Source: Takakia lepidozioides
Taxonomy: Eukaryota > Plantae > Bryophyta
Direction: 5' to 3'
NCBI GenBank assembly: GCA_030704615.1
Contig: CM060734.1
Location: 12,524,001 to 12,588,000, forward strand
Length of the DNA: 64,000 nucleotides
Shown here piece by piece: positions 39,824 through 64,000 of the stretch (its first letter is position 1; every line of letters begins with the position of its first letter). A program made the translations under genes and the position numbers. The notes under the pieces are model-generated. The model was not told the DNA's origin. It did not search any database and saw only the letters and a program-made list of their open reading frames with translations.

Positions 39824-39829
39824 AAAATA

Positions 39830-40302
39830 TGCAAAGGCGTTGCCTTTCGGATCCAGCACCATTGAGGCCACAACGTAATGCCAGTCCTCTTCTGTGCTGT
39901 GATATTTGGAAATGACGTTCATCCAGGCAAGCAACCTGTGGTTGCCATCCCAGACATGAACGTTTCCCCGAAAAAACCTGGGTCGACAGCCTCTTGCAAA
40001 TGTGAGCCTCAAAAGAGCCCAGCTACTGACAATGGAATCGTCCACCAACACCTATTTTCCACTAGCATCGCTCAAGGACACATAAAACACCCCCGAGCCC
40101 TCTATTTATCCGTGACAAAAATCTTGTTCCAACTTCGTGATATCATTCATGAGGGTTGGCCGAACGACGGATATTGATATCATGCCACAGAGGGGGATCA
40201 TGATCCTTCCTCTTGGTACGCCCATTGACTTGATCACTTGGGCAGAATTTACCTTGGAATACCCCATGAGCTTCGCAGCCCACTCTTCGTAGTAGGGGTC
40301 AT
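39830..40302 (-). pseudogene. ParB/Sulfiredoxin-like N-terminal domain fragment
   Basis: IPLCGMISISVVRP...DITKLEQDF.HG*..G..VFYVS...HVWDGNHRLLAW; DGNHR is the ParB/Srx signature. Two in-frame stops. Confidence 0.65.
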
Positions 40303-40892
40303 CAATCATCGAACTCCAGGACACCACATCTCGCTCGGCCATATCATCAAACACTCCCTTTGCATCCTCGATACTCCTGCCTTTGGCATACATGTCCATC
40401 ATGGCATTGTTCAGAATGACATATGGTACAATTCCAGCTTTAATGATGTCACCATGGACCTTTCTGCCCCTTTCCAGGGTTTCCAGGCTCGCACACGCAT
40501 TGCAAACACAAATGAACGTGACCCGGTTGGGCGTCACCCCTTCCTACATCATTTGCTCATATGTCTCCAAAGCCTCCATTGCACATCCATGTTGGGCATA
40601 TCCTATGATCATTGCATTCCACAACACCACATTTCGTTCAGCCATATCGTTGAACACTCCCTTTGCATCCTCGATGCTTGCACCTTTGGCATACATGTCC
40701 ACCAGGGCAATTTTCAGGATGACATCTGGTGATGATTTCCAGGATGATTTCCAGCTTTGATGATGTCAGGATGGACCTGCTAGGCTCACGCATGCATTGC
40801 AAATGCAAATGAACGTGACCCGGTTGGGCTTCACCCCTTCTCGCATCATTTGCTCATAGGTCTCCAAAGCCTCCATCCTGCACCCCTGCCGT

Positions 40893-43600
40893 CACTACTA
40901 CGTTTAGGTGGGTCGGAGGGGGGGGGGGTATTGGGGGGGTTTAGCGATGCCTCAACGACCTCCAAATGCCACGCTTAGCGACAAAAATACTTTACGGCGC
41001 CCGGGGCAATCTGCGACGTCGGACAAACGTCGGTCCCGGAACGTCGCAAATTTAGCGACCTCGGGGAATCGCTAGTTACCCCGGACCCCCCGGCCACGGC
41101 TTGCAACGCTGGGAAGACGCAACCCCTATAGAGCGTCGCAACGTTGCGACTCCCAGGAATCGCAACGAAGGCCAAGGGAGGGGGTTCCATGCCTGCATTG
41201 AGGGGACGTTGCAACAACGTCGCACATTTATAAAAATGGCAACGCGACGGAATCGCCTCCACATTGCTACCCGGGACAAGAGTGCCCCCGCCCTTGCGAT
41301 GCGGGGGCATCGCAAATGGGGTCTCAGTTGCCTGGGGGACTGGCGACACCCGGGAATCGCAAGGCTATCACCGCCAGCTTGGGGGGTCGCAAGGCTCCCA
41401 TTGGTGGGGCTGTTCGCTTGCGTCGCAAGCTCCAGGGGTGGGTGTTTTTATCTGTGACACCCGGGAGTTGCCGAGACGTCGCAAGCTCCAGGACGGGGTG
41501 GTTTTATTGCGACGCCTGGGAATTGCTAGGGTGTCTTGGACCCCAGGGGGGCGTCGCAAGGGCATCATGGGGGGGGGGGGGGGGGTTGTTTGGTTTGGGG
41601 TTTTTGTTTCTCGGGGGTCAGGGTGTGCTTCGTGCTTGCAAGAATTGCATGTATTCTAATCTATAGGTCGACCCACCAAATCTACATGTCCATTAAGGTT
41701 AGAATGAGGATTGAAATGGCAACTGAAAATATATATACATAAAGCGAGTACTACCTGTACATGTCTCTAACTGGGAACCATCCCTCACTCCTCATCACCT
41801 GAGTCACAGGAGTACTCGTCCAAGGAATGCAAGCTACGCTGGGCCTCCACTTTGGAGGATGATGAGGCCGAGTTCGAGATTACATCATCCTTCGAACCAC
41901 CCCCTACTACTGGCTCTCCCCCATCCGGCTGAGCCACTGAACTACCCATCCCCACCCCTACAGATGCACTATCCTCCGTCAATTGTGGCGCCTTGGCCAT
42001 TGAGGCTACAAGGGCCTTCCACCCTTGCGTCTTGGCAAAGTTGTGCTCGACGGCGGAGGGGGGCCTCTCAAACATTTTTTTTCTGCACATGACATACAAA
42101 TGCAATGACAGGTCAGAATTCATGATGGAAGGAGAAGCTAAAAAAGAAGAATGGGTAGGACAAGGGAAAGAACACTTACAAATCGGGTGACAAAACTCTT
42201 GCTTCCGCCGGGGCCCCACTTGTGTGTTGATTCCGCACACTTCTCGAGGCGGGCTGCAGTTGCCGCACGGCCCTCGCGAAGATCTCTTTGTTCAGCTCTT
42301 CCCTCTCCCCTGCAATGAGAGCCTCCCAAGATTTTTGTCCAGTCCCAACAAAGACACCATAAATGTTAATGAACTCCATACCGCAATGAACATGCCTTCA
42401 AAGACGCCAATGACAAAGTAAAGTGCGTCTTACCTTGGTTATTCCATGTGGCATGGTCATTGGTTGGACCCCCGCCTTGAGTGCCTTGCGAATGGTTTGT
42501 CGCACACGGTACCTCTTGTCCTTGAGGTTCTTTCCCACCAGTTCCAAGAGCTTCCCCTCATTCCACTCACCCGGAGATTGGCCCTCAAGTGCTTGCACAA
42601 ATGCTCGCCTATGGTGATGTGATTGGCGTGGCCAATCAAGATGCCAAGGGAACCACCTCGCCACCAAGTCAAAGGCCTGTTTTTTCATGGCCTCCCAACA
42701 CTCACCAATGGGGTCACCAACCTTATTGGTCTCTAAGGGGGGCACCACGATCTTTGGCAAATAAGGGACGCGGGGACCCGAGGTCCTTACCTCGTCCACG
42801 CTCTTCTCAACTACCTCTCCCCTGTCTTTTGTTGCCCCACTCGTGCCCTCCCCTAGCTGCACCTCTCTCCTTCTACGTCTCTTTTTCTTAGGCTCCCTCT
42901 CGTAGGCCCGTCTTTTCCCCTTCCCCTCCACTACTTCCCTACCCTCCTGGATGACTAGGGGAATCTCGGGGGTACGATGTCTCTTCCTCTTCTTCTTACT
43001 ATCCCCACGGGCATGTATCGCCACTGTCCTTGCTTTGTCGGTGGCAAGCCCATTGCCTGCCACAATCGTTGCCACGAATGTGCCAAGCTCCTGAACACAA
43101 AATCCACAAAATTAGAAACAAACCAGAAACAAATGAAAAGCACCAGAAAGAAAACAAGTTGAAGGGAAGTGGCTCACCTTTGCGTCCATGACGCCAACGT
43201 TGCCTTCGGTCCCCGCTTGTGGTGCAGCCCGCATAAGGCCCTCTCGGAATAAGGGTGGAAGTTTGTCCCATGCACTCAATAGGCTCGCAGGCGGCACCCC
43301 AAAGTCCAGGGTCTTCTTCGTTGACCGTTCAGGCGACGAACTAGTTCACAAGGGGCCCTCCAAAGCTAGTGTCTCCCTCTCCTCTTCCCCCTCCCTTTCC
43401 CGTGCCCCCCTATTTCCCTCTTCCCTCTTCTTGTCTTCCTCCCTCTTCCTTTCCTCCTCTTTCCACCTCATTGCGGCCTCCTTTGAAGCCTCCCTCTTCT
43501 CCCAAGGTGATGAGGAAAACCCCCCCTTATGAGCCCCCCCCCCCCCCTTTATAAGCCCTCTTGGCTGCAGAACAAGGGGAAAAGGCATTGGTGGTGGGGG
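40893..43600. mobile_element. CACTA element end with subterminal repeats and degenerate TnpA-like ORF pieces (minus strand)
   Basis: CACTACTAC at 40893 truncates the PPR pseudogene; dense GCGAC/GTCGC/TTGCGA repeats to ~41560; basic, intron-interrupted ORF pieces 41785-43300. Right boundary uncertain. Confidence 0.6.
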
Positions 43601-44602: not shown

Positions 44603-44712
44603 GACGCAACGGCGTGAGCGTGTGAGCGTACGCTCACACAATGCTGACATGGCGTGAACCTACGCTCACACCAGCTGATGTGGCGTGAGCGTACGGTCAC
44701 GCCGACGTGGCG
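44603..44712 (+). repeat. Isolated MULE TIR fragment
   Basis: Reverse complement of 37761-37871 with high identity. Confidence 0.8.
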
Positions 44713-46475
44713 CTAGGACAACCATCGTTACGCTCGCCAGATCACCCTTGAATTCGGTTTTGATAGAGATGGCGTGCGTAGCCAGTTTCTTGTCAATCTC
44801 CGACATTAGGAATTCGTGCCCATGCTTGGAAGTCGATGTTGATTTGATGGTGAGGGAGTTGACAGTGTCGGCCAGTGCTTGGTTGATGTTAGCAACTCTT
44901 AGTCGTTCCAGAATCTCGGCTGCTGGTGGGGTAGCCCCATTGAAACTATTCGTGTGAGGCTCGAATTTGATGAGTCTGTTGATAACTAGGACTAGCGGAC
45001 GGTTGCACCATTGGGCATATACACTAGGGTTCTTGCAGGTGATTAGAGCCATCCCTGTGTGCCGAATTTTCTCCATCCTGTCAATTGAGTTGAAATGAAT
45101 GTGCTCAGCGTTGTCTTTGCCAAAGATGCCATAGAGGGCATCTTCCGTGGCCGATTGTGAATGAAATGGGTTGAGATTTTTTGCCACCGGGGTGAGGGCA
45201 TCACGCTCCGCAATGGCCTCATGTGGTGTTGCAGTGATACCAGTCATACTGGAGCATCGTGTTTGTATTTGTGGTTTGATCAACGTATGCTCAATTCGCA
45301 CCCCTTGTTCTAACATGCATTGTTTGGAGTCTGCTGCAGCAAGATAGATGAAACAGAACTTTGATGCTGGGCCTGTCTTTTGAACCTGTACAATTTTGAA
45401 TTCGTCTCCATGTTGGTGTGTTTCCATGATGAAATGCATGGTTAGCTTGCTGGCTATTTTGCCAAGTAGGATATCACTGGCCAAATAGAGAGAGAGGTGG
45501 TCGGGTGAGGCGGGAAGGTCATATGCCTTTTCAATTTTACCTTGCATCTGCTCCCCGGACGCCATGGTCATGACAAATGTGCGGTTGCCTTGGAGAGGTG
45601 CGATGCCGTCCGTGGCTGGGTGCAGTAGCTCCACCTTGAGAAAGCCGTTCCACATTTTACTCCCGCGCTTGGTGTAGGCTGTGATCGGAGAGTAGAGGAC
45701 CTTGCCAAGTGGGATGTTCATGACTTCAAGGTATTTGTGGGCCCGGTAGAGCGCTTGCTCCTTGGGCATGTCGGTGTCGCTATCAAAGCGAATCAGAATG
45801 TGCGGGGGTGAAGCTGAGAGGCCCGATATGGGGTCAATTTGGGTGCCTTTGGGGAGCTGCGTGAGGGAGAGAAACTGGCCTTCTCGTCCATTGTGCCTCA
45901 CTGAAGGGTAGTGTAGTTGAGGGACGTGCGGGTAAGCCTTGGGGCAGTGGTGCATTTCATGAATTTCTGAGTTGCAGAGGCCGATGCGTTGGAGTTCAAA
46001 CGAGGAGCGGTCCTCAGCAACCAAGGGCAACGCCGAGTCCCTCACATGCTGCTCGAGTGTGGGGTAGCCCATCCAGTATTTGCTGTATGTTGGAGAGAAA
46101 TAGGGAGCCACGATGTGTTGAGGGGCTTGGTGTGCCAGTGCCTTTGGATTTTTTGGAGTCAGCTGGGCTACTGCCAGCCTCGCTGTTGGATTCGCTAGCT
46201 GACCGCTTGGAGTGGGGGGTGGTAGCTGGGAGCTGTACTGACAAGGTGTTTGCAGTTTGAGGTGGGACGCACCGTTTCCCGGGTGTTGTTGCAGACGACG
46301 GGGTGGTGATGGCTTGAATTGCTGGAGTCTGCTCATTGCTGATCTTCGCAGGGCTCTATGTGGAACGGGCCTGATAGGCGTTCTCTGCTGCAAAGAATAA
46401 TTCGTCGGAGGGGTGCATGTCGCTGACATCCATGCCTTCTTTCTGGCGGATGTCCATGTCATAATCCTTATCCAT
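44713..46475 (-). pseudogene. Probable LINE ORF1 (RRM-like alpha/beta repeats then coiled coil), 3'-truncated
   Basis: About 580 open codons with one frameshift near the ATG at ~46475. C-rich upstream region (46500-47190) has the same strand bias as the other LINE pieces; cut by the TIR at 44712. Function inferred from context only. Confidence 0.45.
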
Positions 46476-47224
46476 GTGACTAGCTGTGGACGCGGAGCTG
46501 AGTGCCGCAAGCTGGAGTGAGCTAGCTCGTTTGCTGCGGGTGACTATAGTAGAGAGGGGATGATGGTGCTTTTGGATACTGCCTGTACTCTTCTGGGTAC
46601 TACCAATTTGGAAAGAGACATACGTAGAGAGAAGCCAACAGTTGGGAGTTGTGAAAAAGAGAGAGATGGGCAGTGTGCTGAGAGCAGAGAGGGCGGGTTG
46701 AGACAAAATTGCCAAGGTGGTGGGGGAAGTGGCTGGCTTGGGGTGTGGCTGCAGCCTGTATGTGGGGGCAGTATGGTAGCAGTGTGAGGTAGCCTGGCGG
46801 CAGGGTCGTCTTGGTGTAGTAATTAGAGCCGTTAGCCTTTTATGCCTGGGTGGCGGCTGAGAGGTGCTGGAGTAAGGAGAGGTATTAAGAAATGTAAACG
46901 CATGACAAGGTGGTGGCATGCCTTTGTCAGTAAACAGCTCTTTAATGTGTACTGTGGGTGAGGTTGGGTGTGGTGGTTCGAGGTTGGGAGTCGGCGTTGA
47001 TTTGGCTAGTGTGAGGTAGTGATTACTTGGGGGGGGGGGTAATTAATCCAGCTTGAAGAGTTGTGTATTAAGAGGTTGCAATTTTGGCAGTCTGCAGTTT
47101 GGTATATCATTAAGTGTTGTTTGGTGGTTAATATTGGGTGCAGGAAGGGATAGGGAGCTGTAAATGGAGTTGAGGTGGGCAGGGCCCAGTGCTACAACCA
47201 TATTTGTTGTAATTTTAAAAATAA

Positions 47225-47950
47225 GCGACCGCTCATACTGCGGTCGCTATTTTTATTTTTTATAAAACACACGCGACCGCCAATATTGCGGCGGTCGCTT
47301 TTATTTCCTTTGATTTTAAAAAATATTGCGGTCACTTTTATTTTGTATATTTCTAAATTTCAGCTCGGCCCGTATGGCGGTCGCTATTATTTTATATTTC
47401 CAAATATAATGCGACCGCCAGTATTGCGGTTGCTTATATTCATTATGACGCTTATTTTTTATATTTTTAAAATGACACGACCGCAAATATGGCGGTCGCT
47501 TCATTTTTTTATATATTAAAAATAAAGCGACCGCCAAGATGGTGGTCGCTTTTATTCTTAATATTTTGAAAATACAGCGACAGCCAATACGACGGTCGCT
47601 TTTAATCTTTATATTTTTAAATTTAAGCGACCGCCAGTGTGGCGCTCGATTTTATTTTATATATTTTTAAATTTATGCGACTGCCAAGTTTGGCGGTCGC
47701 CATTATTTTTTATTTTAAAATAAACGACCGTCCGGTGTGGCGGTTGTTTTTTTGGGTCGCTTATATTTTTATTTAAGAAAAATAAAGCGACCGCCATATT
47801 ACTTTTATATTTTTTTAATATTATGCAACCGCCATTACGGAGGTCGCTCAGTCACTGTTTTTTTAAAAACAATTAGCGACCGCCAATATAACGGTCGCTC
47901 ATATTTTTTATATTTCAAAATATAAAGCGACCGCCAGATTTGGCGGTCGA
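47225..47950. repeat. Second GCGACCGCC-N-GGCGGTCGC palindrome array (~13 full plus 2 half units, 50-bp period)
   Basis: Units e.g. at 47225, 47273, 47411, 47477, 47527, 47577, 47627, 47677, 47825, 47876, 47927. Confidence 0.9.
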
Positions 47951-48113
47951 TTTTCCACCGCCACCGTGTCGGCGACATGGCTGCTTAAGTGGCAATAATT
48001 TACCTGGTAACTTTTTTACTAGAATATTCCCGGAACCTGACGTGATGGAAGTCCTGTCAGCGTCAGGTCTGACGTGACCTGACGCTGACTGCGCTTGAAT
48101 TTTCAGTTACGCA

Positions 48114-49368: not shown

Positions 49369-49744
49369 CGCGGTAGATCAACGGAGTACACACAGAGCAA
49401 AGAAACGCCCTTACGAAGCACGACTGTGTGTCTCCAAGGTGGTGGGCCCGCACTTCCAGCGTAAAACGGCCAACGCGAGCTTCCTGCGTATGATGGAGTC
49501 AAGAAAGTCCACTTTTGTGGGGGTCAAGTCACCTACATGGGACCATCTATGCTCTTTCCTCACCCTGGTGAGCCCACCGCATCTACCATGTCTCTTGTCA
49601 TTTTCGTTGCATTGTTGGGTGTGCGTAGGTGGTATATTAAGGTGTCGTCAACGTCATCTTAATATGGGAGGTATTTCCATTCATTGTTTCGGGTGTGTGG
49701 ACACCAATTAGTCAATCTGATTCGTTTGCATGTCCTCATTTCAG

Positions 49745-50741
49745 GTGACCAGGATGCCATGCTGGGTGAATGGGGTGCAGCAGGCCTACGCGACTGATCT
49801 TGTCATCCTTGACATCCCAGATGGGCAGCTTGTGCCTGATATCATTCCCACAGATGTGACGCCAAGCTGGAATGCTCATAATCCTCTTTACTGGCAGTGG
49901 GCATTCTCTTTCAGCAACAAGTTCCTCTCTGACGCGGGCTCGCTTTTGATTTTCCAAGGTGAGGACATGGCATCCCGCCGGATCCTTCACAGCTACATAA
50001 AGTCATCGGGGTTCAAAATCTACAAAATATGGACCTGTATAAACACCCCGCCTCTTTCAAATGCGGAAGGCAGAAGGACTCTCTAGGGCTTTGTTGTCTG
50101 TTATCATTTGGTAGTAGTACGCATCACAACATTTCTAACACAACTCTCTTTGTGCTGCTGCAGACCATGTCTTCAAGGCCATTTGTCTTGCTCCAATTCG
50201 GCCTGACACCACTCCTGCTCATGTTGGGCATTTTGACGTTTGGGAAGGAGGGCTTCACATAGACCCGGAATGCGACCCAGTGGAATCTGATGTTATCCAC
50301 AACTATGTGGACTCGTCACAGACATTGAAAAAAACTGGTGGCATTCCATGGAGAGGTGCTCGGGAGAAGTCGCCCACTTTCATGCAGACTTTGATTGAGA
50401 CATGCAGCCGGCATGGTGGGATAGTGGTGGACCTGTCCATGGGCACAGATTGGTGCCCAATCAGTTTTCATTTCTTGGGTGCACTTGTTGGCATTCTGTT
50501 TGGACTTCTGACATGGTTTCGTGGATCCATTTGCACTATTGCAGGGGCTTCGTTCCATGCCTGCAAGTATGCACGAAGGCATTTTTTTGGGATGGAGGGG
50601 GAGGAGAAGCTCTACTCTCAAGTCATCGCACCACTGTCTGAGGGGTCATCGCATTCGACCCAGACTGAGAACATTGTGGTGGAGCAGGATCTGCAAGAGC
50701 CCGATGCTCTGGATGTCGATTCCGATTTCTCATGTGAGTAA
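49745..50741 (+). pseudogene. Beta-class N4C/N6A DNA methyltransferase-like gene, intron-containing, 5'-truncated
   Basis: Motif IV-like TDLVILDIPDG and FLSDAGSLLIF precede EKSPTFMQTLIETCSRHGGIVVDLSMGT/GASFHACKYARRHFFGME (motifs X-I-II). Removing 50449-50544 (96 nt; donor GT>AT, CTGAC branch, TTGCAG acceptor) restores DLSMGTGA. Further acceptors at 49744 and 50163. Confidence 0.75.
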
Positions 50742-51592
50742 GTGCAAGTTCTGTTGTGGCACTTGACTGACACGACGGCGCATCCTTCTATTTTCCTCTT
50801 TCGTGCACAAGTTTGGCCAGCATAATGTATGTGGACTTACATTATTCATATGTGTGTGCAGGAGTCCCAAGACGCCACGGTTTTTGCCTTTCTTTGCCAA
50901 CCCGCAATTTTTCCCAAGTCCAAGAGTAGATTTTGAATTGCCATGTTATGCGGAGGCTGCAGCGTGCGAATTTAGTCTCCTTTCTTGTCCCCCTCCTGTG
51001 CTTTATGACAGAGAGGGTTTTGTGCAGAGCAGGGCTAGTGTCTTCATAGACAGTTCTACCTTTGTTTTTGGACTCCGACTCCAGTAGCAGTGGATATTCT
51101 TTTTCAGAATGAATCGGCTGTTTATAGACGATTTTTATTAAAGCACCAAATGGCCTCTCCACCTTCTTTGCAATTGGGTGTCAGCATCTCTCTCGACGTA
51201 GGATACCTGGTGAAATGACAACCACAACCCTCCTCAGTTGGCAGAGGTTCACTCTGGAGCTCGGAGGATTTGGCAACCAATACTGAAAATTGCTTTTAAT
51301 TTTGCATTCATCCACAAACTACATTCATCCATGTGCCATTCGTGCAACATACATTCATCGCCCATTCATCCATCATTCATCCATCATTCATCCATAACGA
51401 TGAATTGGTATGCATGTTATATTGGACACTACCCGCAGTAACAGGTCCTCTAAGCCGAATTGGTGTCTGCGGTTATAGGTGAGCAGATCCTGAAGCGTAA
51501 GTAGAATTTTGCTCACGGAATTTTCTGCTCACTGATTCTACTCACGCTTTAGCAATCCCCATTTTCAACCCTTCTGCTGAAGAGGGGTTTGT

Positions 51593-52068
51593 ATGTACTT
51601 GTATTGGAATGACCATCTGTGTTTTTGGGGTGTGTGGTTCAGGTACATGTATCATGTCCTCATTCCGGGAAAGTACCTTAGCGATGACCCTGACTTCATC
51701 TACATATGGGCGGACCCCTCCAATGAGAAGACAATGTATACGGCTGGTATTGCCAGAGACTGGAGCAGGGCGCACTTCAGAGACTGCGGGTGGGACCTTG
51801 ATCTGCCCAAACATGACACACCATTCGATGAAGTGGTTTTGAGGAACCTGAACGACAATGCCGCTGCACTAGCCCCGCTTACTGACAAAGACATTCAGGA
51901 GAGAATCATTCAAGCTCTGAACGCAAAAGAGCCTGAGAAATCGTCCACTCCAAAACGGAAGGGGAAGAATGCAGGGGATGGGAAGGGGAAGGGGAAGGGG
52001 AAGAATGCAGCTGCGTAGGAACAGGTCGCGCAACAGCCTGCTGACAGGCAGCATTCTCCGACGAGGAA
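51593..52068 (+). pseudogene. Upstream exon of the second amino-MTase-like gene, interrupted by the gypsy insertion
   Basis: Removing 52069-63507 and one GGAA gives a continuous acidic frame DEEG*ENTEDEGIAF that leads, via a GT intron at ~63697, into the MTase exon at 63787. Confidence 0.5.
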
Positions 52069-52395
52069 TGTCAAGTAATTTTACCACTAGTGTGAAACTA
52101 GCTAGGAAATAGCTAGCTTTTACATATTGACATTTGGGATTGGCCCAAGTGTCAATCCAGGGGTCAAGGCAGATTTAGGCCCTGGAGTGGTTATCTTCAC
52201 GGCAAGCGCAGGAGGCTCATCTTTCTCGAGTTGAGCCTCACCGCGCCTAGCTATGGCGCCGTAGTGTGGATTCCCCATGGCGTGGGGTGCACTTGGCTTG
52301 ACTTGTATTTGAGTGATGAGGTTATATATGCATGAGTTTATGCTTCAGCTTTATGAGCTCGCATGAGCTTGTGCTTGTATTCTTCTTCTTTATCA
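52069..52395 (+). repeat. LTR segment A1 (327 bp)
   Basis: 7 mismatches by eye against A2 (63014-63340), no indels. Confidence 0.95.
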
Positions 52396-52411
52396 CTCGA
52401 GAAAGATGAGC
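52395..52411 (+). promoter_or_regulatory. Self-complementary primer-binding site
   Basis: ACTCGAGAAAGATGAGC is the exact reverse complement of LTR 52215-52231 (GCTCATCTTTCTCGAGT). No TGG-starting tRNA-type PBS is present. Confidence 0.85.
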
Positions 52412-53084
52412 TCGTATCTGTGAGTGCCAGATACGAGTTAGTTGTAGCACTTGTGGTTTTTGCTTGAGAATGAGAGAAACCAAGTTGTTATGCAAAGAGC
52501 ACAGTGGAGCTCTTGGTTGTTAGAAGCGGAGGCGATGTGGGTTACGAGGTGGTAGACCTTGGCATTCGATCTTCAGCTTTAGAGATGAAAGCACCATGCT
52601 GCAGGTAATTCCAGAGCACCTTGATGGTTTCAGATTGTGTACATGCATGAGCAAGCACGATTGGGAAGAGGACCAGTCAAGAGCAGGTTATAGTGGCTTT
52701 GGTGGCAAAGCTGAGAACTGGACTTGGGAATGCGAGCTTTCATTGTGTGAAGGATTGCAAGACCAAGCGAAAAGGCTGATTTGGCTTGGGGCAAATCAGT
52801 GCACTTTGTGGAGTATGGTGAGATTGGGTTTCAATCTCGAGCTTCAGCATTGAGAGGGCTCTTGTCATGGCAAGAGCAGGGCTGGAACAGGAGCTAAGGG
52901 GTGCGGCAAGGCCATGGAATGTGCACCTAGGGTTTCAGAGCTTGGAAGAAGAGCTCTTGCACCACAAGAGAAGTGTCTTGTGGCTGGAAATGTAAGCCTT
53001 AGGGTTTCAGGAGCTTGGCAAAGGCTGTGGAGTGCTTAGTCTTGTCTTAGAGAGCATCAAGGAGCCAAGGAGCCAAGATAGGGG

Positions 53085-54520
53085 GCTGATATCTCTTGTG
53101 TGAAGAGGTTGCATGTGTGGAGCATGTATTCAGCTCATTGAAGCTTTCATCTTCAAGCTTGGAGGGCAAGCAAGGAAGAGGGAAGGGCTGACTTCCCTTA
53201 TGTGAGGGCAATGCATGTGTGGAGCATGCTATCAGCCTGGTGAAGGCTTGCACTTTCAGGTGTGGGAGTGCAAGAAAGGAAGGAAGGGGCTGGTTTCCCT
53301 GTAGGCCATATGGAGCATGCTTTCAGCCTGCTGAAGCTTGTATTTTCAGGTTTGTGGGTGCAAGAAATGAAACAAAGAAGCTGATTCTCTTATGGTGAGA
53401 GTGGGGCATGTGTGGAGCATGCCTTCAGCCCATTGAGGCTCTTGTTTTCAAGCTTTAGAGAGCTAGAACGAAAGGTCTAGGGCTGGTTTCCACTTGGAGT
53501 GAAAGAAAAGCACTTGTAGGGCCTATGTGAGTTGGGGTTTCAACTTCAAGCTTGAAAGGAGCGCAACTCTTGAAGCAGCAGGTGTAGGGGGCTGGAATAG
53601 GCTCTAAGACAGATGCTATGGCCAAAGAGAGTGCTTGAATGAGTGCTCACAAGGGCTGGGAACCAGCAGGGCTTGGTTGTTTGCCATTGAGTTTAGTGGC
53701 GTGTTTGGGGAGGCTAAGTGAGAAAGAAGGCTTGGTTTGTGGCAACCACCTCATGGCTTAGGGCTACTATGGTGGTGTGTGGGAGCCGAAAGAGCAAGAA
53801 TACCTTGCTGATTTCCTCACAACCGCCATAGCTCGGTGGAAAGAAGCCTAGAGTCCAAGAGACACAAACCCTAGCTTGGCGTGGCTAAACCCCTTGGAGA
53901 AATGGCTAAACTGCCAGAGCGGCCATGGATGGGGCTATGACAGGCTGTGAGGGGCTGTGCCGGTGGCCTTCGGGGCTGTGACGGGCTGTGAGGGCCTGTG
54001 AGGGCCTGTGCCGGTGGGTTGTGACGGGCTGTGAGGGCCTGTGACGGGCTGCGCCGGTGGCCTTGGGGGCTGTGATGGGCTGTGAGGGGCTGTGCCGGTG
54101 GCCTTTTGGGGCTGTGACAGGCCGTGCTGAGGCCTTTGGGGTTGTGATGGGCTGTGAGGGGCTGTGTCAGGCCGTGCCTGAGGCCTTCAGGGCTGTGATG
54201 GGCTGTGAGGGACTGTGACGGGCTGCGCCGGTGGCCTTCGGGGCTGTGACGGGCTGTGAGGGCCTGTGAGGGCTTGTGCCGGTGGCCTTCGGGGTTGTGA
54301 CGGGCTGTGAGGGCCTGTGACGGGCTGCGCCCGTGGCCTTTAGGGTTGTGATGGGCTGTGAGGGGCTGTGACAGGCCGTGCCTGAGGCCTTTGGGGCTGT
54401 GAGGGGCTGTGGCGAGCTGTGACGGGCTATGAGGGGCTGTGACAGGCTGTGCCCAGTGGCCTGTGGGGCTGTGACGGGCTGTGACAGGCTGTGCCCAATG
54501 GCCTGTGGGACTGTGACGGT
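53085..54520 (+). repeat. 5'-leader repeats: ~100-bp unit x4 (53085-53500) and GGGCTGTGAC/G minisatellite (53931-54520)
   Basis: GCATGTGTGGAGCATG at 53111, 53213, ~53305, 53406; dozens of 10-12 bp GGGCTGTGA units. Confidence 0.85.
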
Positions 54521-57500
54521 TGTGACCAGTGAGCTAGGTGGGCCTGTGCTGGTCTGTGGTGGCCCGTGTTGACCTGTGGACGGCCTGTGTTGACTCATGG
54601 AGGCACTGGTGGACTGTCTAAGGACTGGCATGTGGTCTTGAAGGCCGAATTTTTGAAGCTCGTGGAGGGCGGTTTGAGGAGTATCTTCATGATATTCCCA
54701 TGGTCATGCAAGTGAGGGAAGAGAGGAGATGAAGAGTGTTGGGATGAGGGCATGCTGGGGTTAGGCATTGCTTTAGCTTCTCTTCCTCGTAGTTTCCACC
54801 CTCTCATTAGGCCAAGACCTTTCCGTAGGTGGAGGCAAGAGTTAGTCCGGGTTTGGGCTGGGGTGTCCTTGCAGGAGCAACACCGTGGAGTTGTTTTTGG
54901 TGTGGGGGAGTCGTCGTTCTGATTTCTTGTGTTTGGATCCCCTCCATACCTGCATGCTTGACTGTGCGCCATGCTAGTTTTGTGTGGGCGCTTGTTTTTA
55001 TAGGTGATTGGTCCGGATTTGATCACCGGCCAGTCCTAGAGCATGCTGTCGATGGTGAGGCTGGGGTGATGACCAGCCAGACCATCATTGTTTATCCTGT
55101 GGTGAGGTTGGAGGTGATGACCAGCCAACCATAGGAGTGCTTGCGGTGGATGCAGGTATAGGTGTAGGCTATGTTAGGAACTTAGTATTCCAAACCATAA
55201 GCCGCAACAGGTTCTCTACCCGGTTACCTTGTGGAGAGGGGGTTAGGGACATGTTCATGACCGGTTGAGTGTCAACATGGAGGTGCCACTAGTTGCTGGG
55301 GACAGTGCCGGTTCGAGCACTAGCGATACTAGTGGGTACACGAGACGAGGTGTGCGGTTTAGGCCACCTTCACCTCCTGTGTCTTCTACGGAAGGTTCTG
55401 ATTCGGATTGTGAATCAGGAGGACTCATACCGGCGGTGCAAGTTGTTTCTTTGCCATTGTTGTGGGACACAATGGAGGAGATGTATGGAGCTACCAAGGG
55501 GCCACGAAGGTACTCTGGGGCGGTGGGCACCATCGAGTTGGATGATTTTATCCAAGAGTTTGATAGTTGGTGTGATTTGCAGCAAATGCGCAATCCACAA
55601 CTATTTACGCCTTTCATGGCATGGAAGGGGCTGTTCCAACACCTTGAGGGGCCGCCTATGGATGATTACCATGAGTTCAGGCGGGGGCATGAGGTTGAGA
55701 TCGAGGAGTGGAGGATGTACTGGTCACCCGACTATGTCTCCATCACTAGGGGCACTGGAGCCACGAGGGCAGTGGCTACACCTGCCGCTGCACCGGCAGC
55801 TTCAGCAAGTAGCAGTGGGACTGGTGGGACTGGTGGTACAGTAGCTACGACGTCCACCCAAGCCACTACCGCACCAGCACTAGCACCCGTGCCTGCCTTC
55901 AACCCTGTTGTGGAATTCTTTGAAGAGTTGAGAGGGAACTACCAAGGGGTGAGGACAGAGAAGTTGCGGAGCTTGCAAGAGTTCCAACGGAAGCCGACCG
56001 AGAGCTTGAGGGAGGCTTTCACTCGCATGAGGCGCTTGATAAATGTAACCCAAGGGGTTACGGAAGCTCAGGCAGTCCAATTCTGGTACGGGATATTGGA
56101 CAAGGAGCTGAGGAGAAGGGTGCGGGATGCAACTCTCCTACAAGCGGCCCAACCCACCTTAGCAAATGTGTTTTTGCTGGCAGAGCGGATAGAGCTCAAC
56201 ATGGTGGAGGAATGAATGGTCATGGTGGGATTTGCTAAGGAGACACCACGGGGTAGTGGTGCTCCTAGCCAACCACTACCTCAACGTGCTCAAGGCAACA
56301 AGGGGGCTCAAGTGAAGCTCAGGGAAGGGCAGAGAGGACCTCAGATGTAGGGGTCTCTCCCTTCATTTGCTGGCCAACAACGGGCGGATGTGGTGTGCTG
56401 GACATGTGGAGGACCCCATGTCAAGAAGGATTGCCCAGAGGGAGGCAAAGGGCCGGCACATGCACAGCTTGCACAGTTGCAGTGTGGGCATTGTGGCAAG
56501 CACGGGCATGGAGAGGCCTACTGTTATGGTTTGCATCCTGAGTTGCGCCCAGGCCAGTTCAAAGGGAACAATGGTGGCCGGGGGCGAGGTGGAGCAGCCC
56601 AGAGAGGACGAGGTGGCCAGCCACGAGGTGCAGGCCAAGGGCAAGCTCAACATGGCCAAGGATGCGGAGGTCAGGGTGTTGACCAAGGCATGGCCAACCG
56701 GCTTCAGCAGCTAGAGCAGAGGCTCGCTGCCATGGCTACAGCCTAGGTGGTACCGGCTCCAAGGCCGGATGGTCCACCTCCTGCTCCTGAGGGAGGAGAT
56801 ATGGGAGGCATGGGATTCATGTGTGGAGCAGCACTACCACTAGTGCAGGTGGAGTCTGCTGCAGCCGTGACTCGAGGAGCAGCACGAGTTCCTGAGCCAC
56901 GAGGTGCAGACGTGGAGTTGGATCCACAACGTGGGGAGGCAAGCCGTCAGGCTAGGCTTCCTTAGTCATTCACATTGGCGGAGACAGTGTCGACGCCATC
57001 CATGGCACCTAGTTCTCGCCCGACTGTTACCGAGGCGGAGGTTACTATGCCATTGGGGAGAGCTACACAGGTAGCACCACTACCTAGTGTTGTCAAGGCT
57101 ACGGCAGCTAGTGTGCTGCTAGGAGCGGCCACATCTGTGTGCCAGGCTCCATTGTTCTCGGCTACCATGATTGCGACGCCGGGGGTAAGACCAGCTGAGG
57201 TGTTCAGGCTGGCAGCTACACTCTGTGAGAGTGGGGAAGTTACTTCATCTTCTGCGGAGATAGTGGGAGGTGTAGTGCCGGAGGGATCCTCGGATTTGAG
57301 GGTCAAGACTGCCACGGCGGCGCCATGGCAAGCTGCAGCTGCCAGGTTGATGGAGCTGCTAGCTAGGCCAGCCATTGAGCGCGCCATGGTGACACCTGGA
57401 GTTGTCATGTTAGACAACCAGGATGACATTTTCTGTTTGAGTGGACCGGCAGGCAAGAGGTACCGGCCACTGCGGGTCTTGTTGGACTCGGGAACTCAGC

Positions 57501-58192
57501 CATTGATGCTGGGCAGAGCTGCTATTGTAGGCTTGGGCCTCACGGAGGCGGATATGGAGCCTTGTCCTTTCCAGATACAGACGTCTCTGGGAGAATCGGA
57601 GTAGGCTCGGGGCATGACACGGCGTGAGTTGGCTATCAGACTACGGCCGGATCACCCTACAGATGGCTTAGTGATGCGAGCCAAGGCCATTGTGACAGAC
57701 GCGGTCTCATACGATGTCCTGGTTGGTGGGGCAGTGTTGTACCCCATGGGCTTCACCCTGGATTTTTGGGAGGAGTCTGCTTCCTATAGGCCTGCATGGC
57801 AGTTAGGGGAGGGCCGGCGTGTGCAGCTCCCTGTGACGTTCATAGAAGGAGTTGCGGTTGCCCAACGAGGCAAGATGCCGACACTAGCAGCATTCACAAC
57901 GGCAGTGAGTTGGCCTAGAGAGTTGCTTGAGGGCAACGCTCATTCAGAGGATGTGCCACCTCCGGGAGAGCAAGATGATATGTATGGTATGGCGGAGTTG
58001 CCTACCATGGTTGCTCAGACTCCATTGTGGGGCACGAGCAAGGATTTGCAGCGGGATGCTGATCGACGGGTGCAACAAGCCTGGGTGGAGGCTTTTGTAC
58101 CGTCAGGAGAGGAGGAGAGTGCGGGGATTACACCAGGACCACCTCAGTTGTCTCCATTGGACACCACACCTATTGTGTGGCAGTATCCGGAT

Positions 58193-59160
58193 TGTGGCAG
58201 TATCCGGATGAAGGCATTTGTCTTCTGGACTTGTTTGGCGGGATCAGCACCCGATTGGCTGCTGTATTACAGGCAGGTGTACGAGTTCGGCGTTACCTGT
58301 ATGTGGAGAGGGATGAGACTACACGACGCGTTTCACTTCGCCATGTTGCTCAGTTGGTGCAGCGGTACCCTGAGTTATTGTCGGTGTCTGCAATTCGTGG
58401 ATATCAGCAGGCCTTGCCAGCAGACATTTCGTTGCTGGGGGCGTAGGATTTGGAACGGGTTGGCTCCATTGATCTGGTAGTGGCAGGTTGGCCCTGCCAA
58501 GGGCATTCATCAGCCGGGCATGGCAATGGATTGCGAGACTCGAGGTCGGGTCTGTTTTGGGAGATGGTGCGGGTTTTGCGCCACTTGCAGCTTCATCAAG
58601 CTGTATCTCCAGCATACATCTTGGACAATGTGCCACTGATGGGCAATTCTCGGGCCAGGGTGATGGCCAGTGTGCATCAAGTCCAGTCGTGGCTTGGGTC
58701 AGCAGTGTTGCTAGATGCAGCTACAGTGGGGTCACAGGCTCATCGTCCACGGCTATGGTGGACTAACTTGATACCACCCGCACTGCTCAAGCGTGCATTT
58801 GATGGGGTGCAGCGGCCAGCACATCTCACAGTGGATAGCATTCTGGACACAGGGAGGCAGTCTCAGCGTGTGAGATACGATGACCGTTCGCCTTTGGCAA
58901 TGGTCAACAAGGTGGGTCAAACACGAGCAGCATTACCTACACTGCTCAGCTTCCCAGGATCGCATGCTTTCCGGGATAGTGGACCTGGCCTCCTGTGGGA
59001 TGCTCAGTTGCAGCAGTTAGTGGAGCCTAATGCTGACGAGCGTGAGCGGGCAATGGGTTTTACCACTGGTACCACGGCGGTGTCGTCTCTTTCTGAGGCA
59101 TCACGTCGTCAAGTGTTGGGGCAAGCAATGGATCTCAATTGCTTGACCTGGATTATCAGC
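58193..59160 (+). pseudogene. C5-cytosine DNA methyltransferase domain (DNMT3/DRM-like motifs, unpermuted order)
   Basis: Motif I LDLFGGIS, II YVERD, IV AGWPCQG, V LFWEM, VI ILDNV (canonical ENV), VIII HRPRLWWTN, IX ERERAMGF, X RRQVLGQAM. One TAG at 58444. Confidence 0.93.
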
Positions 59161-62100
59161 TTGGCGCTGGCTGAGCAACGCAGAGTGCGGAGTACACTTC
59201 CCTCGATGGTCTCTCTGCCTACCGAGACGGTACAGGCAGTGAATAGAGGCGAGTATGTGAGGACCACGGGGTGCATGCATCCATGGCACACGTGGGAGGT
59301 GCTCGAGGTTCAAAGGGAGTTGGCAGCCAAGGCGGCTGTGATGGATGAGGTTGGGGATTCTTCTTGGGTTGAGAAGGTCCTCAAGGATGAGATGATGGGG
59401 CAGGATGAGGCCTTGTCATTGACTGAGCAGGCAGGGAGTACTGCTCAAGAGGTTGCAACATAGCAACCACTGGACGCGTCCTCTACCTCTAAGCCCACTG
59501 GACTTAAGGTTGCAGTTACGGAGGACAATTAGGAGCCTGACATTGGACCCATTGTCACCGGAGGAGAGAGACGACGTATACGGCGGTTCCTGAGGGTTTA
59601 CAAGAATTGCTTTGCCTTCAATTTGAAGGACTTGGGAGCACTGAAGGGTCAAGAGATCCGTATTGAGTTGGCCACTGACACGCCAATCTTTCGGAGACCC
59701 TATAGATACAGTGACATGGACAGGTCTTTGATTCAGATGAGGACTCAAGATCTCTGGGAGGCAAGTTTGGTGGAGCTCTCTGGTGGAGAGTATGCTTCAG
59801 CCACAGTGATGCCAACCAAGAAGGATGTCTATGGCAATTGGACGGAGAGACGTATGTGCCGTGATTACCGGCCTGTAAATCGTCAGACCAAGTCCGATAA
59901 GTATGCCATGCCAACACCAGAGGAGATCTTTGATGCCATCGGGCATGCTAAGGTCTTTAGCACTTTGGATTTACGATCCGGATATCACCAGTTGCCAATC
60001 AAGGAGGTGGACAAGCAGAAGACGACATTCTGGGGGATCAATGAGCACAGAAAGGATTGTCTATATCAGTGGCGGTTCTTACCATTTGGGCTTAAGAATG
60101 CTCCTGCAGAGTTTCAGAGAGTCATGGATAGGATTCTAGCAGGGGTGGACTTTGCTCGGTGCTATATAGATGACATCATCATCTTTAGTGTTACGATGGA
60201 GGAGCATGAGAGACACCTTCAGGTGGTATTGGAGCGCTTGAAAGCGCACGGATTGAAGTTGCATCCGGGGAAGTGCAAGTTTTTCCACAACCAGATTGAG
60301 TATCTTGATCACATGATATATCCTGGAGGATTGGGGGTACAGCAGACTAAGGTAGAGGCCATTGCACAAATTCCACGCCCCACGGATGTGAGCCGAGTTC
60401 GAGCTTTCATGGGGTTGGCAAACTATTATAGACGGTTTGTCAAGGGATTTAGTACCATTGCAAAGGCTCTAATCAAGCTGACCAAGGTGGACCAGGAGTG
60501 GCAGTGGGAAGATGAGTAGGAACGAGCTTTTCAAGAGCTCAAGGCGAGGTTGACCTCGGCGCCTATCCTGAGACGACCTATCAGGGGGCGTCCCTTTCAG
60601 CTGCATACGGATTGGAGCATGCTGGGGCTTGGAGCGGTGCTCACACAGGTGGATGAAGAGGGAAGAGAGTTTGTAGTGGCTTATGTTAGCCGCTCGAACA
60701 ACGCTGCAGAGGCTAAGTACAGCTCATATGAGGGAGAGTGCTTAGCTGCAGTGTGGGCCGTGGCACACTTCAGGTGCTATCTATACGGCAATCTTTTCAC
60801 CCTTGTCACGGATCACCAGCCACTCAAGTGGTTGATGGAGTCAGACAAGCTTACGGGGAAGCTTGCACGGTGGGCACTCATACTCCAGGAGTATGACTTT
60901 CAGGTTGTGCATCGACCAGGTTTGGTCAATCGGGATGCGGATGGATTGAGTCGCAATCCATGCATGAGCCAGCAGGATGACACTGGAGCTCGGTGGCATG
61001 GTGAGACGGACGAGGAGATGGTGCCGGGATGACACGCATCTGTATTTTTGTGTATCTTGGCATCGGGAGGTCAGGTTGGACCTACAACAGGGATGACTGT
61101 AGACGGAGTGTCTGAGGACCCTGAGGCTAGTGATGAGCCAGGTGGTGCCAGAGATATACATGAGGATTTGGCTGTGTTGGACTACCTCTGCACGGGAGAC
61201 ACGACAGCCACTGTGACTGCCAGGGAGAGGGATCAGATCCTGCAAGGAGCCAAGAGGTTCAAGTGGGAGGGGATACACCTACTTCGAGTGTGGGAGGATG
61301 GTCGGGTGAGGATTGTGCCTCACCCCACACAGCGTGCACGGTTAGTGCGGCATGCCTATGAGGAGTTGGGGCATTTTGGAGTGCGACGCACTCACAGTTT
61401 ACTGCAGGGGCAGTATTGGTGGCGTGGTATGCATACAGAGGTGCAACAGTTCGTGGCTAGGTGCATGGTGTGTGACAGGGTGCGTGCTTCATTCAACGCC
61501 CCTACACCACAGTTGCATCCTTTACCAATCATGGGATTGGGCTACAGGTGGAGTCTTGACTTCGCAAGACCGTTGCCACTGACTATGCGCCACCACAGAT
61601 ATGTGTTGGTGATGGTGGAGCACTTCTCCAAGTGGATTGAGTTGGTTCCATTGCCTGACAAGGCTAGTGAGGGGGCTGCGTATGCATTCTTGGATCGTAT
61701 GCTTAGCCGATTTGGTGCTCCAGCTGAGGTACTCACGGACCAAGGGAGAGAGTTCTTGGGGGAGTTTCAGGCTTTGTGTGATAAAGCCTTGATAGACCAC
61801 CGCACCACTTCTCGGGATCATCCTGAGGCCGATGGCTTGGCAGAGAGAGTCGTTCAGACGGTGAAGAGGGGTTTTCGCAAGTATGGCTTGCAGAAGAGAC
61901 ACCTAGGAGATTGAGATCTTTAGGTTCCTTGGTTAGCCATGGGCTACAGGTTCAGCAAACAAGCATCACATGCCTCCTTCTCACCATATTTCCTTCTCTT
62001 TGGCCGAGAGCCGGATTTGCCTGCAGCCATTCGTAGGGACACTGCTCAAGTCCTTAACCTTGACGATCCGGACGTGTGGGTACGTGCATGTGATCAGCGT

Positions 62101-62453
62101 GCAGAGTTGTTCAAGAAAGTCATGCCCATGGCTTTTGAGAACCTTGCCATTGCACAGCACCGTGATACGTTGAGATATGCTACTATACGTGGTGGAGGAT
62201 ATCGTCCTGGGGTGCGGAGGTTTAGCCCTGGTGACTATGTTTATTTGCAACAGACTGCTCCTACGACTTTGGATGTTACTGCAAGGCGTGTTATTCTGAG
62301 GGTTCAAGAGGTGTTGCCCTCAGGATTCCTGATCTTGGAGGGTCAGGATGGCATGACTTGGAAGACCATGTGCGTAATTGTGCGCTATGTCACCTTCCCA
62401 ATGTCGATGGCAGAGTTGACCCAAACTTGGCAGTGGTACCTGCAGGTTTGAGG

Positions 62454-62597
62454 TGCATGCTCTGTGGGTCTGCCAAAGGGGCAGCCACCATGCTGGTGTG
62501 TGATCGATGCTCAAGGGGTTGGCATATGGGATGCTTGACACCACCTCTTGAGAAGGTTCCTGACGGAGATTGGTTGTGTCCACATTGCTTGGGATAG
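62454..62597 (+). other. PHD finger (C4HC3) at the integrase C-terminus
   Basis: CMLC...MLVCDRCSRGWHMGCLTPPLEKVPDGDWLCPHC, followed by the natural stop. Confidence 0.93.
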
Positions 62598-62846
62598 TGG
62601 CAATGGACATGACTAGAGGCAGCTAACAAGACATGGGAGGCCAAGCTCATAGGAGTCAATACATGAGATCCCAAGCTCAAGTTCATAGGTTGCAAGACGG
62701 CGACTAACGATGGGGCAACTCTTGCACCCGGCCTCTTGATCTATCGAGTTTGAGTGTAGTAGGGATAGTGGTGGAGGACTTAGTGAGGCTATGGTCACTA
62801 TCACATCTTGTGGCTACTTGGACTTAGAGGGACCTAAGCACCAGCT

Positions 62847-62856
62847 AGGGGGGCGA
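62847..62856 (+). promoter_or_regulatory. Polypurine tract
   Basis: AGGGGGGCGA immediately before (T)TGTGTGG, the start of B1. Confidence 0.8.
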
Positions 62857-62857
62857 T

Positions 62858-63507
62858 TGTGTGGACTAGTGACTGCCATAGTGGGCAGCCTAATGACTGA
62901 CTAGCTGTAGCCTAGTGGTTGGACTAGTGGTATACTAGTGTGTGGTGTGCACATGTGTTGTGTGGTTTTGGACAGCGATGTAGTTGTGTAGCGATATGTA
63001 TGCGCACGACAGCTGTCAAGTTATTTTACCACTAGTGTGAAACTAGCTAGGAAATAGCTAGCTTTTACATATTGATATTTGGGATTGGCCCAAGTGTCAA
63101 TCCAAGGGTCAAGGCAGATTTAGGCCCTGGAGTGGTTATCTTCATGGCAAGCGCAGGAGGCTCATCTTTCTCGAGTTGAGCCTTGCCGCGCCTAGCTATG
63201 GCGCCGTAGTGTGGATTCCCCATGGGGTGGGGTGCACTTGGCTTGACTTGTATTTGAGTGATGAGGTTATATATGCATGAGTTTATGCTTCAGCTTTATG
63301 AGCTCGCATGAGCTTGTGCTTGTATTCTTCTTCTTTATCATTGTGTGGACTAGTGACTGCCATAGTGGGCAGCCTAGTGACTGACTAGCTGTAGCCTAGT
63401 GGTTGGACTAGTGGTTGGACTAGTGGTATACTAGTGTGTGGTGTGCACATGTGTTGTGTGGTTTTGGACAGCGATGTAGTTGTGTAGCGATATGTATGCG
63501 CACGACA
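62858..63507 (+). repeat. 3' terminal block B1-GC-A2-T-B2
   Basis: B1 (154 bp) and B2 (166 bp) differ by one substitution and one extra CTAGTGGTTGGA. The B1/A2 junction is the palindrome GACAGCTGTC (63008-63017). Confidence 0.95.
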
Positions 63508-63786
63508 GGAAGGATAAGAGAACACTGAAGACGAAGGAATAGCCTTTGAGGCGAGAGAGCATCCATCAAGGGTTTTGGGTCAGTTCCAGCGCAAGGTGGT
63601 GAATGAAAGCTTTTTGGCTATGATGAATCCAGAAAGTCCACATTCAAAGGGGAGAAATCGAAATCATGGGACGTCCTCGTTTCTTTCCTGACTCAGGTAA
63701 CCACACATCTTTTTACTATGACATGAATGATTTGGTTTTAGCAATTCAAGGCTGCTTTTGACACTGTCTTCTGTTTTGTGGCACAT

Positions 63787-64000
63787 GTCACAAAAAGGCC
63801 AGAGTGGGTGAATGGAAGCCAGCAGGCATACGCGACTGACCTTGTGGTTCTGGACATTCCGGACGGTTGGCCTGTCCCTGATGTCTCCCTTCGAATGCAA
63901 CCCCTACTTGGAACAAGTCAGATGCCCGTTACTGGTAGTGGGTTTTCTCATTCAATAACAAATTCTTTTCTGACGCAGGGGCTCTCCTTCTCATGCAGGC
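63787..64000 (+). pseudogene. Second copy of the amino-MTase-like exon (runs off window)
   Basis: VTKRPEWVNGSQQAYATDLVVLDIPDGWPVPDV matches VTRMPCWVNGVQQAYATDLVILDIPDGQLVPDI at 49745; the downstream FSFNNKFFSDAGALL also matches. Confidence 0.8.

Follow-up and report, generated by a model that had tools for sequence, protein, structure and literature searches.

A DNMT3-like methyltransferase ahead of a conserved, putatively leaky stop codon in a Ty3/gypsy retrotransposon of the moss Takakia lepidozioides

Introduction

Cytosine methylation silences plant retrotransposons, yet a retrotransposon family in the moss Takakia lepidozioides carries an enzyme of the silencing type, a C5 cytosine DNA methyltransferase (DNMT), and has spread widely. 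The copy considered here is a Ty3/gypsy element in a stretch of 64,000 nt (assembly GCA_030704615.1, contig CM060734.1, positions 12,524,001 to 12,588,000 of the forward strand; hereafter the window, whose own numbering is used), and the question that it raises is what such an enzyme does in the element that carries it. The role of these enzymes was left open in the 2018 paper of de Mendoza et al., in which the algal domain was without activity in yeast (PMC5890265). The original prediction for this locus, made from the letters alone, placed the methyltransferase in a single gag-to-integrase frame that had been broken by decay. We find that the domain does belong to the element and is conserved in it, and that a family-wide stop codon, likely passed by readthrough, separates it from the reverse transcriptase (RT).

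Results and Discussion

The methyltransferase domain and its conservation

The element is complete but dead, spans 11.4 kb (52069–63507), and is laid out as A1-internal-B1-GC-A2-B2, A and B being repeats. Its domains stand in the Ty3/gypsy order, that is, gag, aspartic protease (PR), DNMT, RT, RNase H (RH), DDE integrase (IN) and PHD finger. A Pfam scan of 11 pieces of open reading frame (ORF) matched DNA_methylase, RVT_1, RNase H, the zinc finger and core of the integrase, the PHD finger and, weakly, gag. The TG...CA ends and a short (4-bp) target-site duplication are likewise those of Ty3/gypsy elements; two complete, equal long terminal repeats (LTRs) with a transfer RNA (tRNA) primer site were not found, split repeats and a self-complementary site standing in their place. 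Membership in DIRS or Ngaro was rejected because a DDE integrase (rve) is present and no tyrosine recombinase was matched among the 11 ORFs scanned.

The set of C5 methyltransferase motifs that had been predicted between the DSG protease and RT is borne out, with motifs I, II, IV (WPCQ), VI (DNV), VIII (HRPRLWWTN), IX and X following one another in I-to-X order at 58195–59175 in a translation that carries X at the single in-frame stop of the domain, and the proposed search with PF00145 returned E = 1.9e-11 and 44.4 bits (cut-off 22). Motif VIII had been likened to that of DNMT3/DRM enzymes, of which the DNMT3 part stands: the closest solved structures in a single-sequence comparison are DNMT3A/B/C, a profile comparison gave 78 bits for DNMT3A versus at most 39 for DRM-type enzymes and 33 for HhaI, and the predicted structure (mean predicted local distance difference test score 80, high over residues 1–330) matches the DNMT3A fold at E = 1e-16 with a template modelling score of 0.83 on the target. 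These closest structures are DNA enzymes, and DNMT2 scored far lower in the profile comparison. By sequence and modelled fold the domain is thus a DNMT3-type C5 methyltransferase; a DRM identity was rejected, since the motifs are not permuted.

Conservation was counted over the window copy and 74 loci (L001–L074) from a metagenome scan, each row being counted where it covers the position; the scan yielded 80 loci, of which 6 weak matches were left out, as were 17 loci from IMG/VR, all weak (E 6e-14 or worse). The catalytic Cys and the Asn of motif VI are each kept in 70/70 rows, the Glu of ENV in 62/70, the Gly of motif I in 66/69 and the Asp of motif X in 67/69, while the two Arg of motif VIII are kept in 48/71 and 58/71. 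The ratio of nonsynonymous to synonymous substitution (dN/dS), computed between separate loci or lineages, was 0.125 (L024/L025), 0.103 (L024/L055) and 0.147 (L003/L015) in the three unsaturated pairs between lineages; dS was saturated in four pairs of the window copy with a relative and in L056/L058, and the near-identical L058/L059 returned no value. Neutral evolution, which the original prediction had named as grounds for giving it up, is not what these pairs suggest. Judged by these comparisons the domain is under purifying selection, and the element thus resembles the described gypsy-DNMT3 kind in having an intronless DNMT3-like domain under such selection within a gypsy coding region.

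Decay of the window copy and the state of the family

The coding frame from gag to integrase holds 12 stops in the window copy. TAG stops had all been taken for decay. The frame holds TGA stops as well as TAG; two stops, at 57602 and 59530, occur in the window copy alone (approximately 99% of public-contig depth differs there), and the TAG at 59461 is family-wide, as described below. The 17-bp tandem duplication at 58176–58209, correctly proposed as the cause of the frame break, is exact, explains the change of frame and is private to the window copy; public contigs omit it or stop matching at 58192. Another frameshift, near 62365, cuts off the PHD finger, which is in frame in relatives. The motif VI variant, which had been flagged for checking as ENV or DNV, is likewise resolved: 99.9% of public-contig depth encodes Glu at this position, so that the family has ENV and DNV is private to the window copy.

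The family is very abundant. In one run (X1), which aligned 36,885 public contigs to 3.3 kb and in which contig depth is not a copy number, depth was 0.70–1.23 million over the DNMT versus 0.85–1.18 million over the RT, and no well-supported contig joint deleting the DNMT domain was seen among 40 of the 359 difference rows. As had been predicted, the methyltransferase is therefore a conserved component of the element itself rather than a nested insertion, a conclusion also borne out by the recurrent domain order and congruent trees of the relatives.

A conserved stop codon between methyltransferase and reverse transcriptase

The TAG at 59461–59463 showed no variant of ≥3% in 4/4 contig runs, while the nearby positions 59457, 59458 and 59471 vary heavily. 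The CAA CCA that follows it fits the context CAR YYA, which no other of the 12 stops of the window copy does; in reporter assays in plants, UAG in this context was read through at rates of up to 32% (PMC2754532). The start of RT could be placed in 47 related junctions. In 40 of these a stop lies 17–24 codons before the Trp of the RT start and differs from CAR YYA at no more than one position (exact in 6, a single mismatch in 34); other in-frame stops come this close in 20/598 cases and are exact in 0/598. The hexamer differs among lineages (CAA CCA, CAG TTA, CAA TCA), suggesting that nucleotides rather than residues are kept, and a stop with the same hexamer type recurs in unalignable linkers of approximately six lineages taken as independent (window, L003, L023, L024/L025, L055/L070, L036 and the Sphagnum type). 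RT lies in the same frame as the upstream ORF in intact loci; in L024 the frame runs through approximately 2,400 codons, gag and PHD included, and its sole stop is the one at the position matching 59461. Many Marchantia and metagenome proteins end 93–148 aa after motif X.

These patterns indicate that the TAG at 59461 is family-wide and not a product of decay, so that the idea of a single gag-to-integrase ORF broken by decay alone is not supported. ORF1 is likely Gag-protease-DNMT, with RT-RNase H-integrase-PHD made by readthrough of a conserved in-frame stop and hexamer with an open frame downstream. In a literature search that was thin on subscription journals, no description of a leaky stop or of priming in gypsy-DNMT elements was found.

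Relatives and two domain orders

Labelled relatives found in protein searches (48 and 106 matches) come from Marchantia, Calypogeia, Riccia and Sphagnum, with no Klebsormidium-labelled sequence among these matches; Marchantia gene models of the lineage include Mp_4g09160 and Mp_8g17980. The window domain is 58–69% identical to that of Sphagnum-type loci, so the window element represents another family.

Two domain orders occur, gag-PR-DNMT-RT-RH-IN-PHD (the window type) and RT-RH-DNMT-IN-PHD (13 loci). Of the best 150 of 542 representatives (E up to 1e-30), the second order is seen in 99 and the first in 10, and in 41 the domain stands by itself; 24 long representatives were checked against Pfam. 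Trees built from 23 rows for RT and for DNMT, with element rows only and no outgroup, place the second-order loci in one group (support 96/92 and 98/95), and an 8-row clade containing the window copy nests identically in both. DNMT and RT have thus descended together, and the trees fit one old capture of the DNMT followed by a move within pol, in one direction or the other.

The sister group, with the DNMT between RNase H and integrase (L049, L050, L052–L054, L056–L060, L064, L067 and L074), has mostly open frames and is more diverse than the window type among 50% representatives; to judge by resemblance, its hosts may be green algae. In the long-branched relative P0048 the domain precedes RT within a single ORF, and motif IV is altered.

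Ends, primer site and palindromic junction

The A-internal-B-GC-A-B layout, a DIRS-like arrangement of split repeats, is shared by L035 and L047, and the 4-bp target duplication is perfect in 5/6 elements with both ends, among them the shorter A...B form L018. The A2/B2 joint consists of the exact A end and B start in both the window family and the Sphagnum type, suggesting that ends of complementary DNA (cDNA) are joined. The B/A junction palindrome is also exact in 3/10 sister-group loci examined. Where the junction has decayed, the changes fall on its CHG bases. L005, L011, L018 and L042 end at a single B repeat; because L018 keeps its 4-bp duplication, such copies may derive from B-B recombination or from one-repeat circles.

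A stretch within A1 pairs with the site just after A1 at 17/17 positions in the window copy and in L031, L032 and L035, and at 16/16 in L024, with three different sequences involved, while 0/2000 control 17-mers paired within two mismatches. The Sphagnum type shows perfect pairing in three of the 14 loci compared and a single mismatch in three more. The window element thus has a putative self-priming site of the kind used by Tcn1 and Tf1/sushi elements; the C-terminal chromodomain of these elements was not found, a PHD finger occupying its place. The solved structures closest to this finger are fingers of CHD4, PHF12, KDM5, ATXR5, PHF21A, BAZ2 and UHRF1, most of which have the unmodified H3 tail as their ligand.

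A proposed life cycle

We consider it probable, though well short of certain, that the window element is a dead copy of a gypsy family whose ORF1 encodes Gag, protease and a DNMT3-like enzyme, whose pol is reached by readthrough, and whose methyltransferase, packaged at the level of Gag, methylates the element's own new DNA. The RNA would start within A1, and its first 16–17 nt would pair with the site just after A1 and prime minus-strand DNA, as in Tf1. Plus-strand synthesis would be primed by the polypurine tract and begin where B starts, which would make B-GC-A the working terminal repeat. The two cDNA ends would then be joined, and integrase would open the internal palindrome CA-GC-TG, yielding A-internal-B-GC-A-B. 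The abundant enzyme would methylate cytosines, likely in CG, on the cDNA before or at insertion, and the PHD finger may steer insertion to nucleosomes, likely by reading the unmodified H3 tail. Readthrough, self-priming and the integration route are all strongly suggested by conservation.

A broader proposal, quite unlikely in its entirety and offered tentatively, is that this is an old green-plant gypsy lineage defined by self-priming, joined ends and internal-palindrome cutting, in which Gag-level DNMT3 pre-marks new copies and the marks could direct integrase's choice of palindrome. The first-made junction duplex would be split by the second strand transfer, so that methyl marks could tell integrase which palindrome to cut; such a mark-directed choice would explain the single permutation observed.

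Several observations weigh against the life cycle favored here. The window copy itself cannot yield a working enzyme, given its DNV, its altered motif I, its stop and its frameshift; three pairs of decayed Sphagnum-type copies gave dN/dS of 0.40–0.63; and the Klebsormidium domain gave no methylation of yeast DNA in a test that its authors call inconclusive (PMC5890265). With regard to readthrough, 33/34 one-mismatch stops are of the Sphagnum type, most of these rows being near-redundant copies of one family, and 7/47 junctions carry no signal by the test used here, with Tyr or Glu in L027, L033 and L042, a different junction in L068 and L069, and a frameshift in L039 and L041. The deeper relatives P0036, P0037, P0039 and P0048, as well as the sister group, hold the DNMT in one ORF with RT, so that Gag-level supply would not be required everywhere. 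With regard to priming and integration, the pairing has at least three mismatches in 8/14 Sphagnum-type loci, in some through deletions, and the mirror left end A-B-A, which a symmetric circle would produce as often as the observed form, was found in 0/14 left ends (12 distinct insertions).

Alternative explanations share much of this anatomy. A possible but unlikely one keeps both the repeats and readthrough and has the methyltransferase act outside the particle, on chromosomal copies or host chromatin, in self-restraint or host manipulation. A Gag-level supply would exceed the need of one cDNA, the coding region is CpG-depleted (observed/expected 0.44–0.62), the B/A junction decays at CHG bases, and self-limitation is raised as a possibility in PMC5890265; host enzymes alone account for the CpG depletion, however, and the position of the sister-group domain beside integrase in pol, seen in the 99 second-order representatives above, fits an action on the cDNA or at insertion. 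It is improbable that the domain persists as a module for binding nucleic acid or for structure, or as an enzyme for RNA, with DNA methylation incidental. Fusion to Gag would suit packaging of such a module, and the inactivity of the Klebsormidium domain in yeast (PMC5890265) agrees with it, whereas the near-invariance of the catalytic Cys, motif VI Asn, motif I Gly and motif X Asp, and closest structures that are DNA enzymes with DNMT2 far behind, do not.

The stop itself could be real with pol reached by splicing, re-initiation or a second promoter, or could be shared decay of one ORF. CAG-to-TAG decay is common in the window, and L027 and L033 have Tyr at the stop position; against these stand the shared frame of RT in intact loci, the recurrence of stop and hexamer in unalignable linkers, and L024 with this as its sole stop, which make such a route very improbable. 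Finally, the frameshift at the start of the domain might suggest a chance nested insertion or an assembly chimera in one copy, an explanation that is refuted by the matching contig depths of DNMT and RT, the same order in dozens of loci and the agreement of the RT and DNMT trees, and that we regard as having next to no probability.

If ORF1 ends at 59461, the enzyme's expected dose would be set by the conserved stop at the level of Gag and not that of RT, an outcome foreseen by no one-ORF model. The role of the enzyme is testable, since the model liverwort Marchantia has the lineage and there are natural relatives, L024 among them, that are intact. The anatomy of the repeats suggests integration via an internal palindrome, which for retroviruses is a mere side reaction. 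For annotation, split-repeat elements escape LTR finders that require two equal LTRs, and element-borne domains will inflate DNMT3 gene counts in bryophytes.

Features of the element and of the rest of the window

The features of the element are collected in Table 1; an Rfam search of 51500–64000 returned zero matches.

Table 1. Positions of features of the gypsy element in the window.
Feature	Position	Strand	Evidence or remark
Left 4-bp target-site duplication GGAA	52065–52068	+	Identical 4 letters at 63508–63511
Repeat A1, 327 bp, TG...CA, left element end	52069–52395	+	97.9% identity to A2, 7 differences
17-nt stretch within A1, putative RNA 5′ end and self-primer	52215–52231	+	Perfect reverse complement of 52395–52411
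Putative self-complementary primer-binding site, without tRNA-type TGG start	52395–52411	+	Pairing kept, with other letters, in L031/L035 and L024
Tandem array of 10/41/51-bp repeats in long 5′ leader	53871–54533	+	Repeat search
gag, two zinc-knuckle-like motifs; stops 56213, 56348, 56744	55277–56900 (downstream end approximate)	+	PF03732 E = 9e-4, below cut-off
Aspartic protease region, DSG at 57485–57493, stop 57602	57392–57850	+	Motif; without Pfam hit
17-bp tandem duplication, shifts frame	58176–58209	+	Exact; private to window copy
DNMT3-like C5 cytosine methyltransferase domain; catalytic Cys codon 58495, stop 58444, DNV 58624	58195–59175	+	
Family-wide TAG then CAA CCA (CAR YYA context), likely ORF1 end	59461–59469	+	
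RT (YIDD 60163–60174) and RNase H; stops 59530 (private) and 60517	59533–61029	+	Pfam
Integrase: H2C2 finger, core, C-terminal part; stops 61912, 61921	61251–62360	+	Pfam
C-terminal PHD finger, frameshifted in window copy	62454–62588	+	Pfam; in frame in relatives
Polypurine tract directly 5′ of B1	62847–62855	+	Same tract in L019, L024, L035, L047, L068
Repeat B1, ends in CA	62856–63011	+	Repeat comparison
Palindromic B1/A2 junction CA-GC-TG, putative integrase site	63007–63018	+	Repeat comparison
Repeat A2	63014–63340	+	Repeat comparison
Repeat B2, right element end (CA)	63341–63507	+	Repeat comparison
Right 4-bp target-site duplication GGAA	63508–63511	+	Matches left copy

Beside the insertion, decayed ORFs at 49721–50741 (+), probably with an intron, are similar to DNA methyltransferases of the N6/N4 type, with a match to PF01555 that falls below the cut-off (E = 0.043). 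The stretch 63805–63984 is related to them (72% over 182 nt), the gypsy element being inserted in a related repeat. A second, unrelated gypsy element at 17873–20560 (+) comprises gag, zinc knuckle, protease and a broken RT, with no methyltransferase match.

Decayed genes for pentatricopeptide repeat (PPR) proteins of the PLS type, with tandem duplications of 303–373 bp, lie at 7900–11000 and 38300–41100 (−). These fragments have an E-like tail, which marks the sequence as land-plant DNA, and their best matches are to Diphasiastrum (12/15) and Ginkgo (3/15) among 120 targets that included 47 from Diphasiastrum, 26 from Ginkgo and 21 from Cryptomeria, and no labelled Sphagnum or hornwort. Two arrays with units of approximately 50 bp that are based on a short inverted motif (16796–17426 and 47224–47954), partly mutually inverted and 30 kb apart, are possibly subterminal repeats of a DNA transposon. 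Decayed fragments resembling long interspersed nuclear elements are located at 4246–7535 (+), 13889–15158 (−), 28608–30033 (−) and 44666–47042 (−), one of them including a match to RNase H (PF00075 E = 7e-16), and a tandem array of 54-bp repeats at 31965–32486.

Comparison with known systems

In other elements the readthrough stop is placed between gag and pol, unlike that of the window element, which stands after protease and methyltransferase. Stops of the tobacco mosaic virus type and the candidate readthrough site of the rice gypsy element RIRE2 share UAG and CAR YYA with it (PMC2754532). The putative primer site, complementary to a stretch of the 5′ repeat and not to a tRNA, is shared with Tf1/Tj1 and plant Tcn1, which are chromoviruses with ordinary LTRs, unlike the window element with its split repeats and PHD finger (PMC4600332, PMC6317226). 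With regard to integration, HIV-1 integrase cleaves the palindromic junction of 2-LTR circles in vitro (PMC1905944), and in both HIV-1 and foamy virus (PMC1180852) integrase cuts an internal palindromic junction, as proposed here; their palindrome arises from joined ends and serves a side route, whereas that of the window element is encoded in the genome and would be the only route.

Cytosine methyltransferases are also borne by the retrotransposons SymbioDIRS-Dnmt3 (which methylates CG in yeast; PMC5890265), SymbioLINE-Dnmt and EpiLTRs, which belong to other element classes or another DNMT clade and are independent captures according to the papers (PMC5890265; bioRxiv 10.64898/2026.05.21.726589). 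A PHD finger occurs in the green-lineage gypsy elements Gypsy-7a_cRei and REM1 of Chlamydomonas, and the domain list given for Gypsy-7a_cRei is without a methyltransferase, unlike the window element (PMC9940879). According to the original prediction, a DNMT is not known as a standard feature of embryophyte elements, and our literature search, with the thin journal coverage noted above, agrees in having found no paper that describes one there. The portions of PMC11982613, PMC8616336, PMC6453930 and PMC9940879 covered by it contain nothing on embryophyte gypsy-DNMT elements, a leaky stop or priming; PMC12344493 and the 2026 preprint (bioRxiv 10.64898/2026.05.21.726589) mention 'streptophytes' without naming land plants in the portions covered, and their supplementary trees may hold members.

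The closest known system is KnitGypsy-Dnmt3 of the charophyte Klebsormidium nitens, a gypsy-borne DNMT3 described in 2018 by de Mendoza et al. and compared here via its published description only (PMC5890265). In both elements the DNMT3-like domain is free of introns, keeps its motifs in unpermuted order and is under purifying selection, and both have DIRS-like repeats (in KnitGypsy-Dnmt3 according to the legend of Fig. 4c and the review file, which gives A1, A2 and two B flanking A2). KnitGypsy-Dnmt3 has few copies, whereas the window family is very abundant and lives in an embryophyte. In KnitGypsy-Dnmt3 the DNMT shares one ORF with RT and RNase H (PMC5890265); in the window element the frame is the same and a conserved stop lies between them. 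The kind is thus known from Klebsormidium, and the conserved, putatively leaky stop before RT is a new variation on it.

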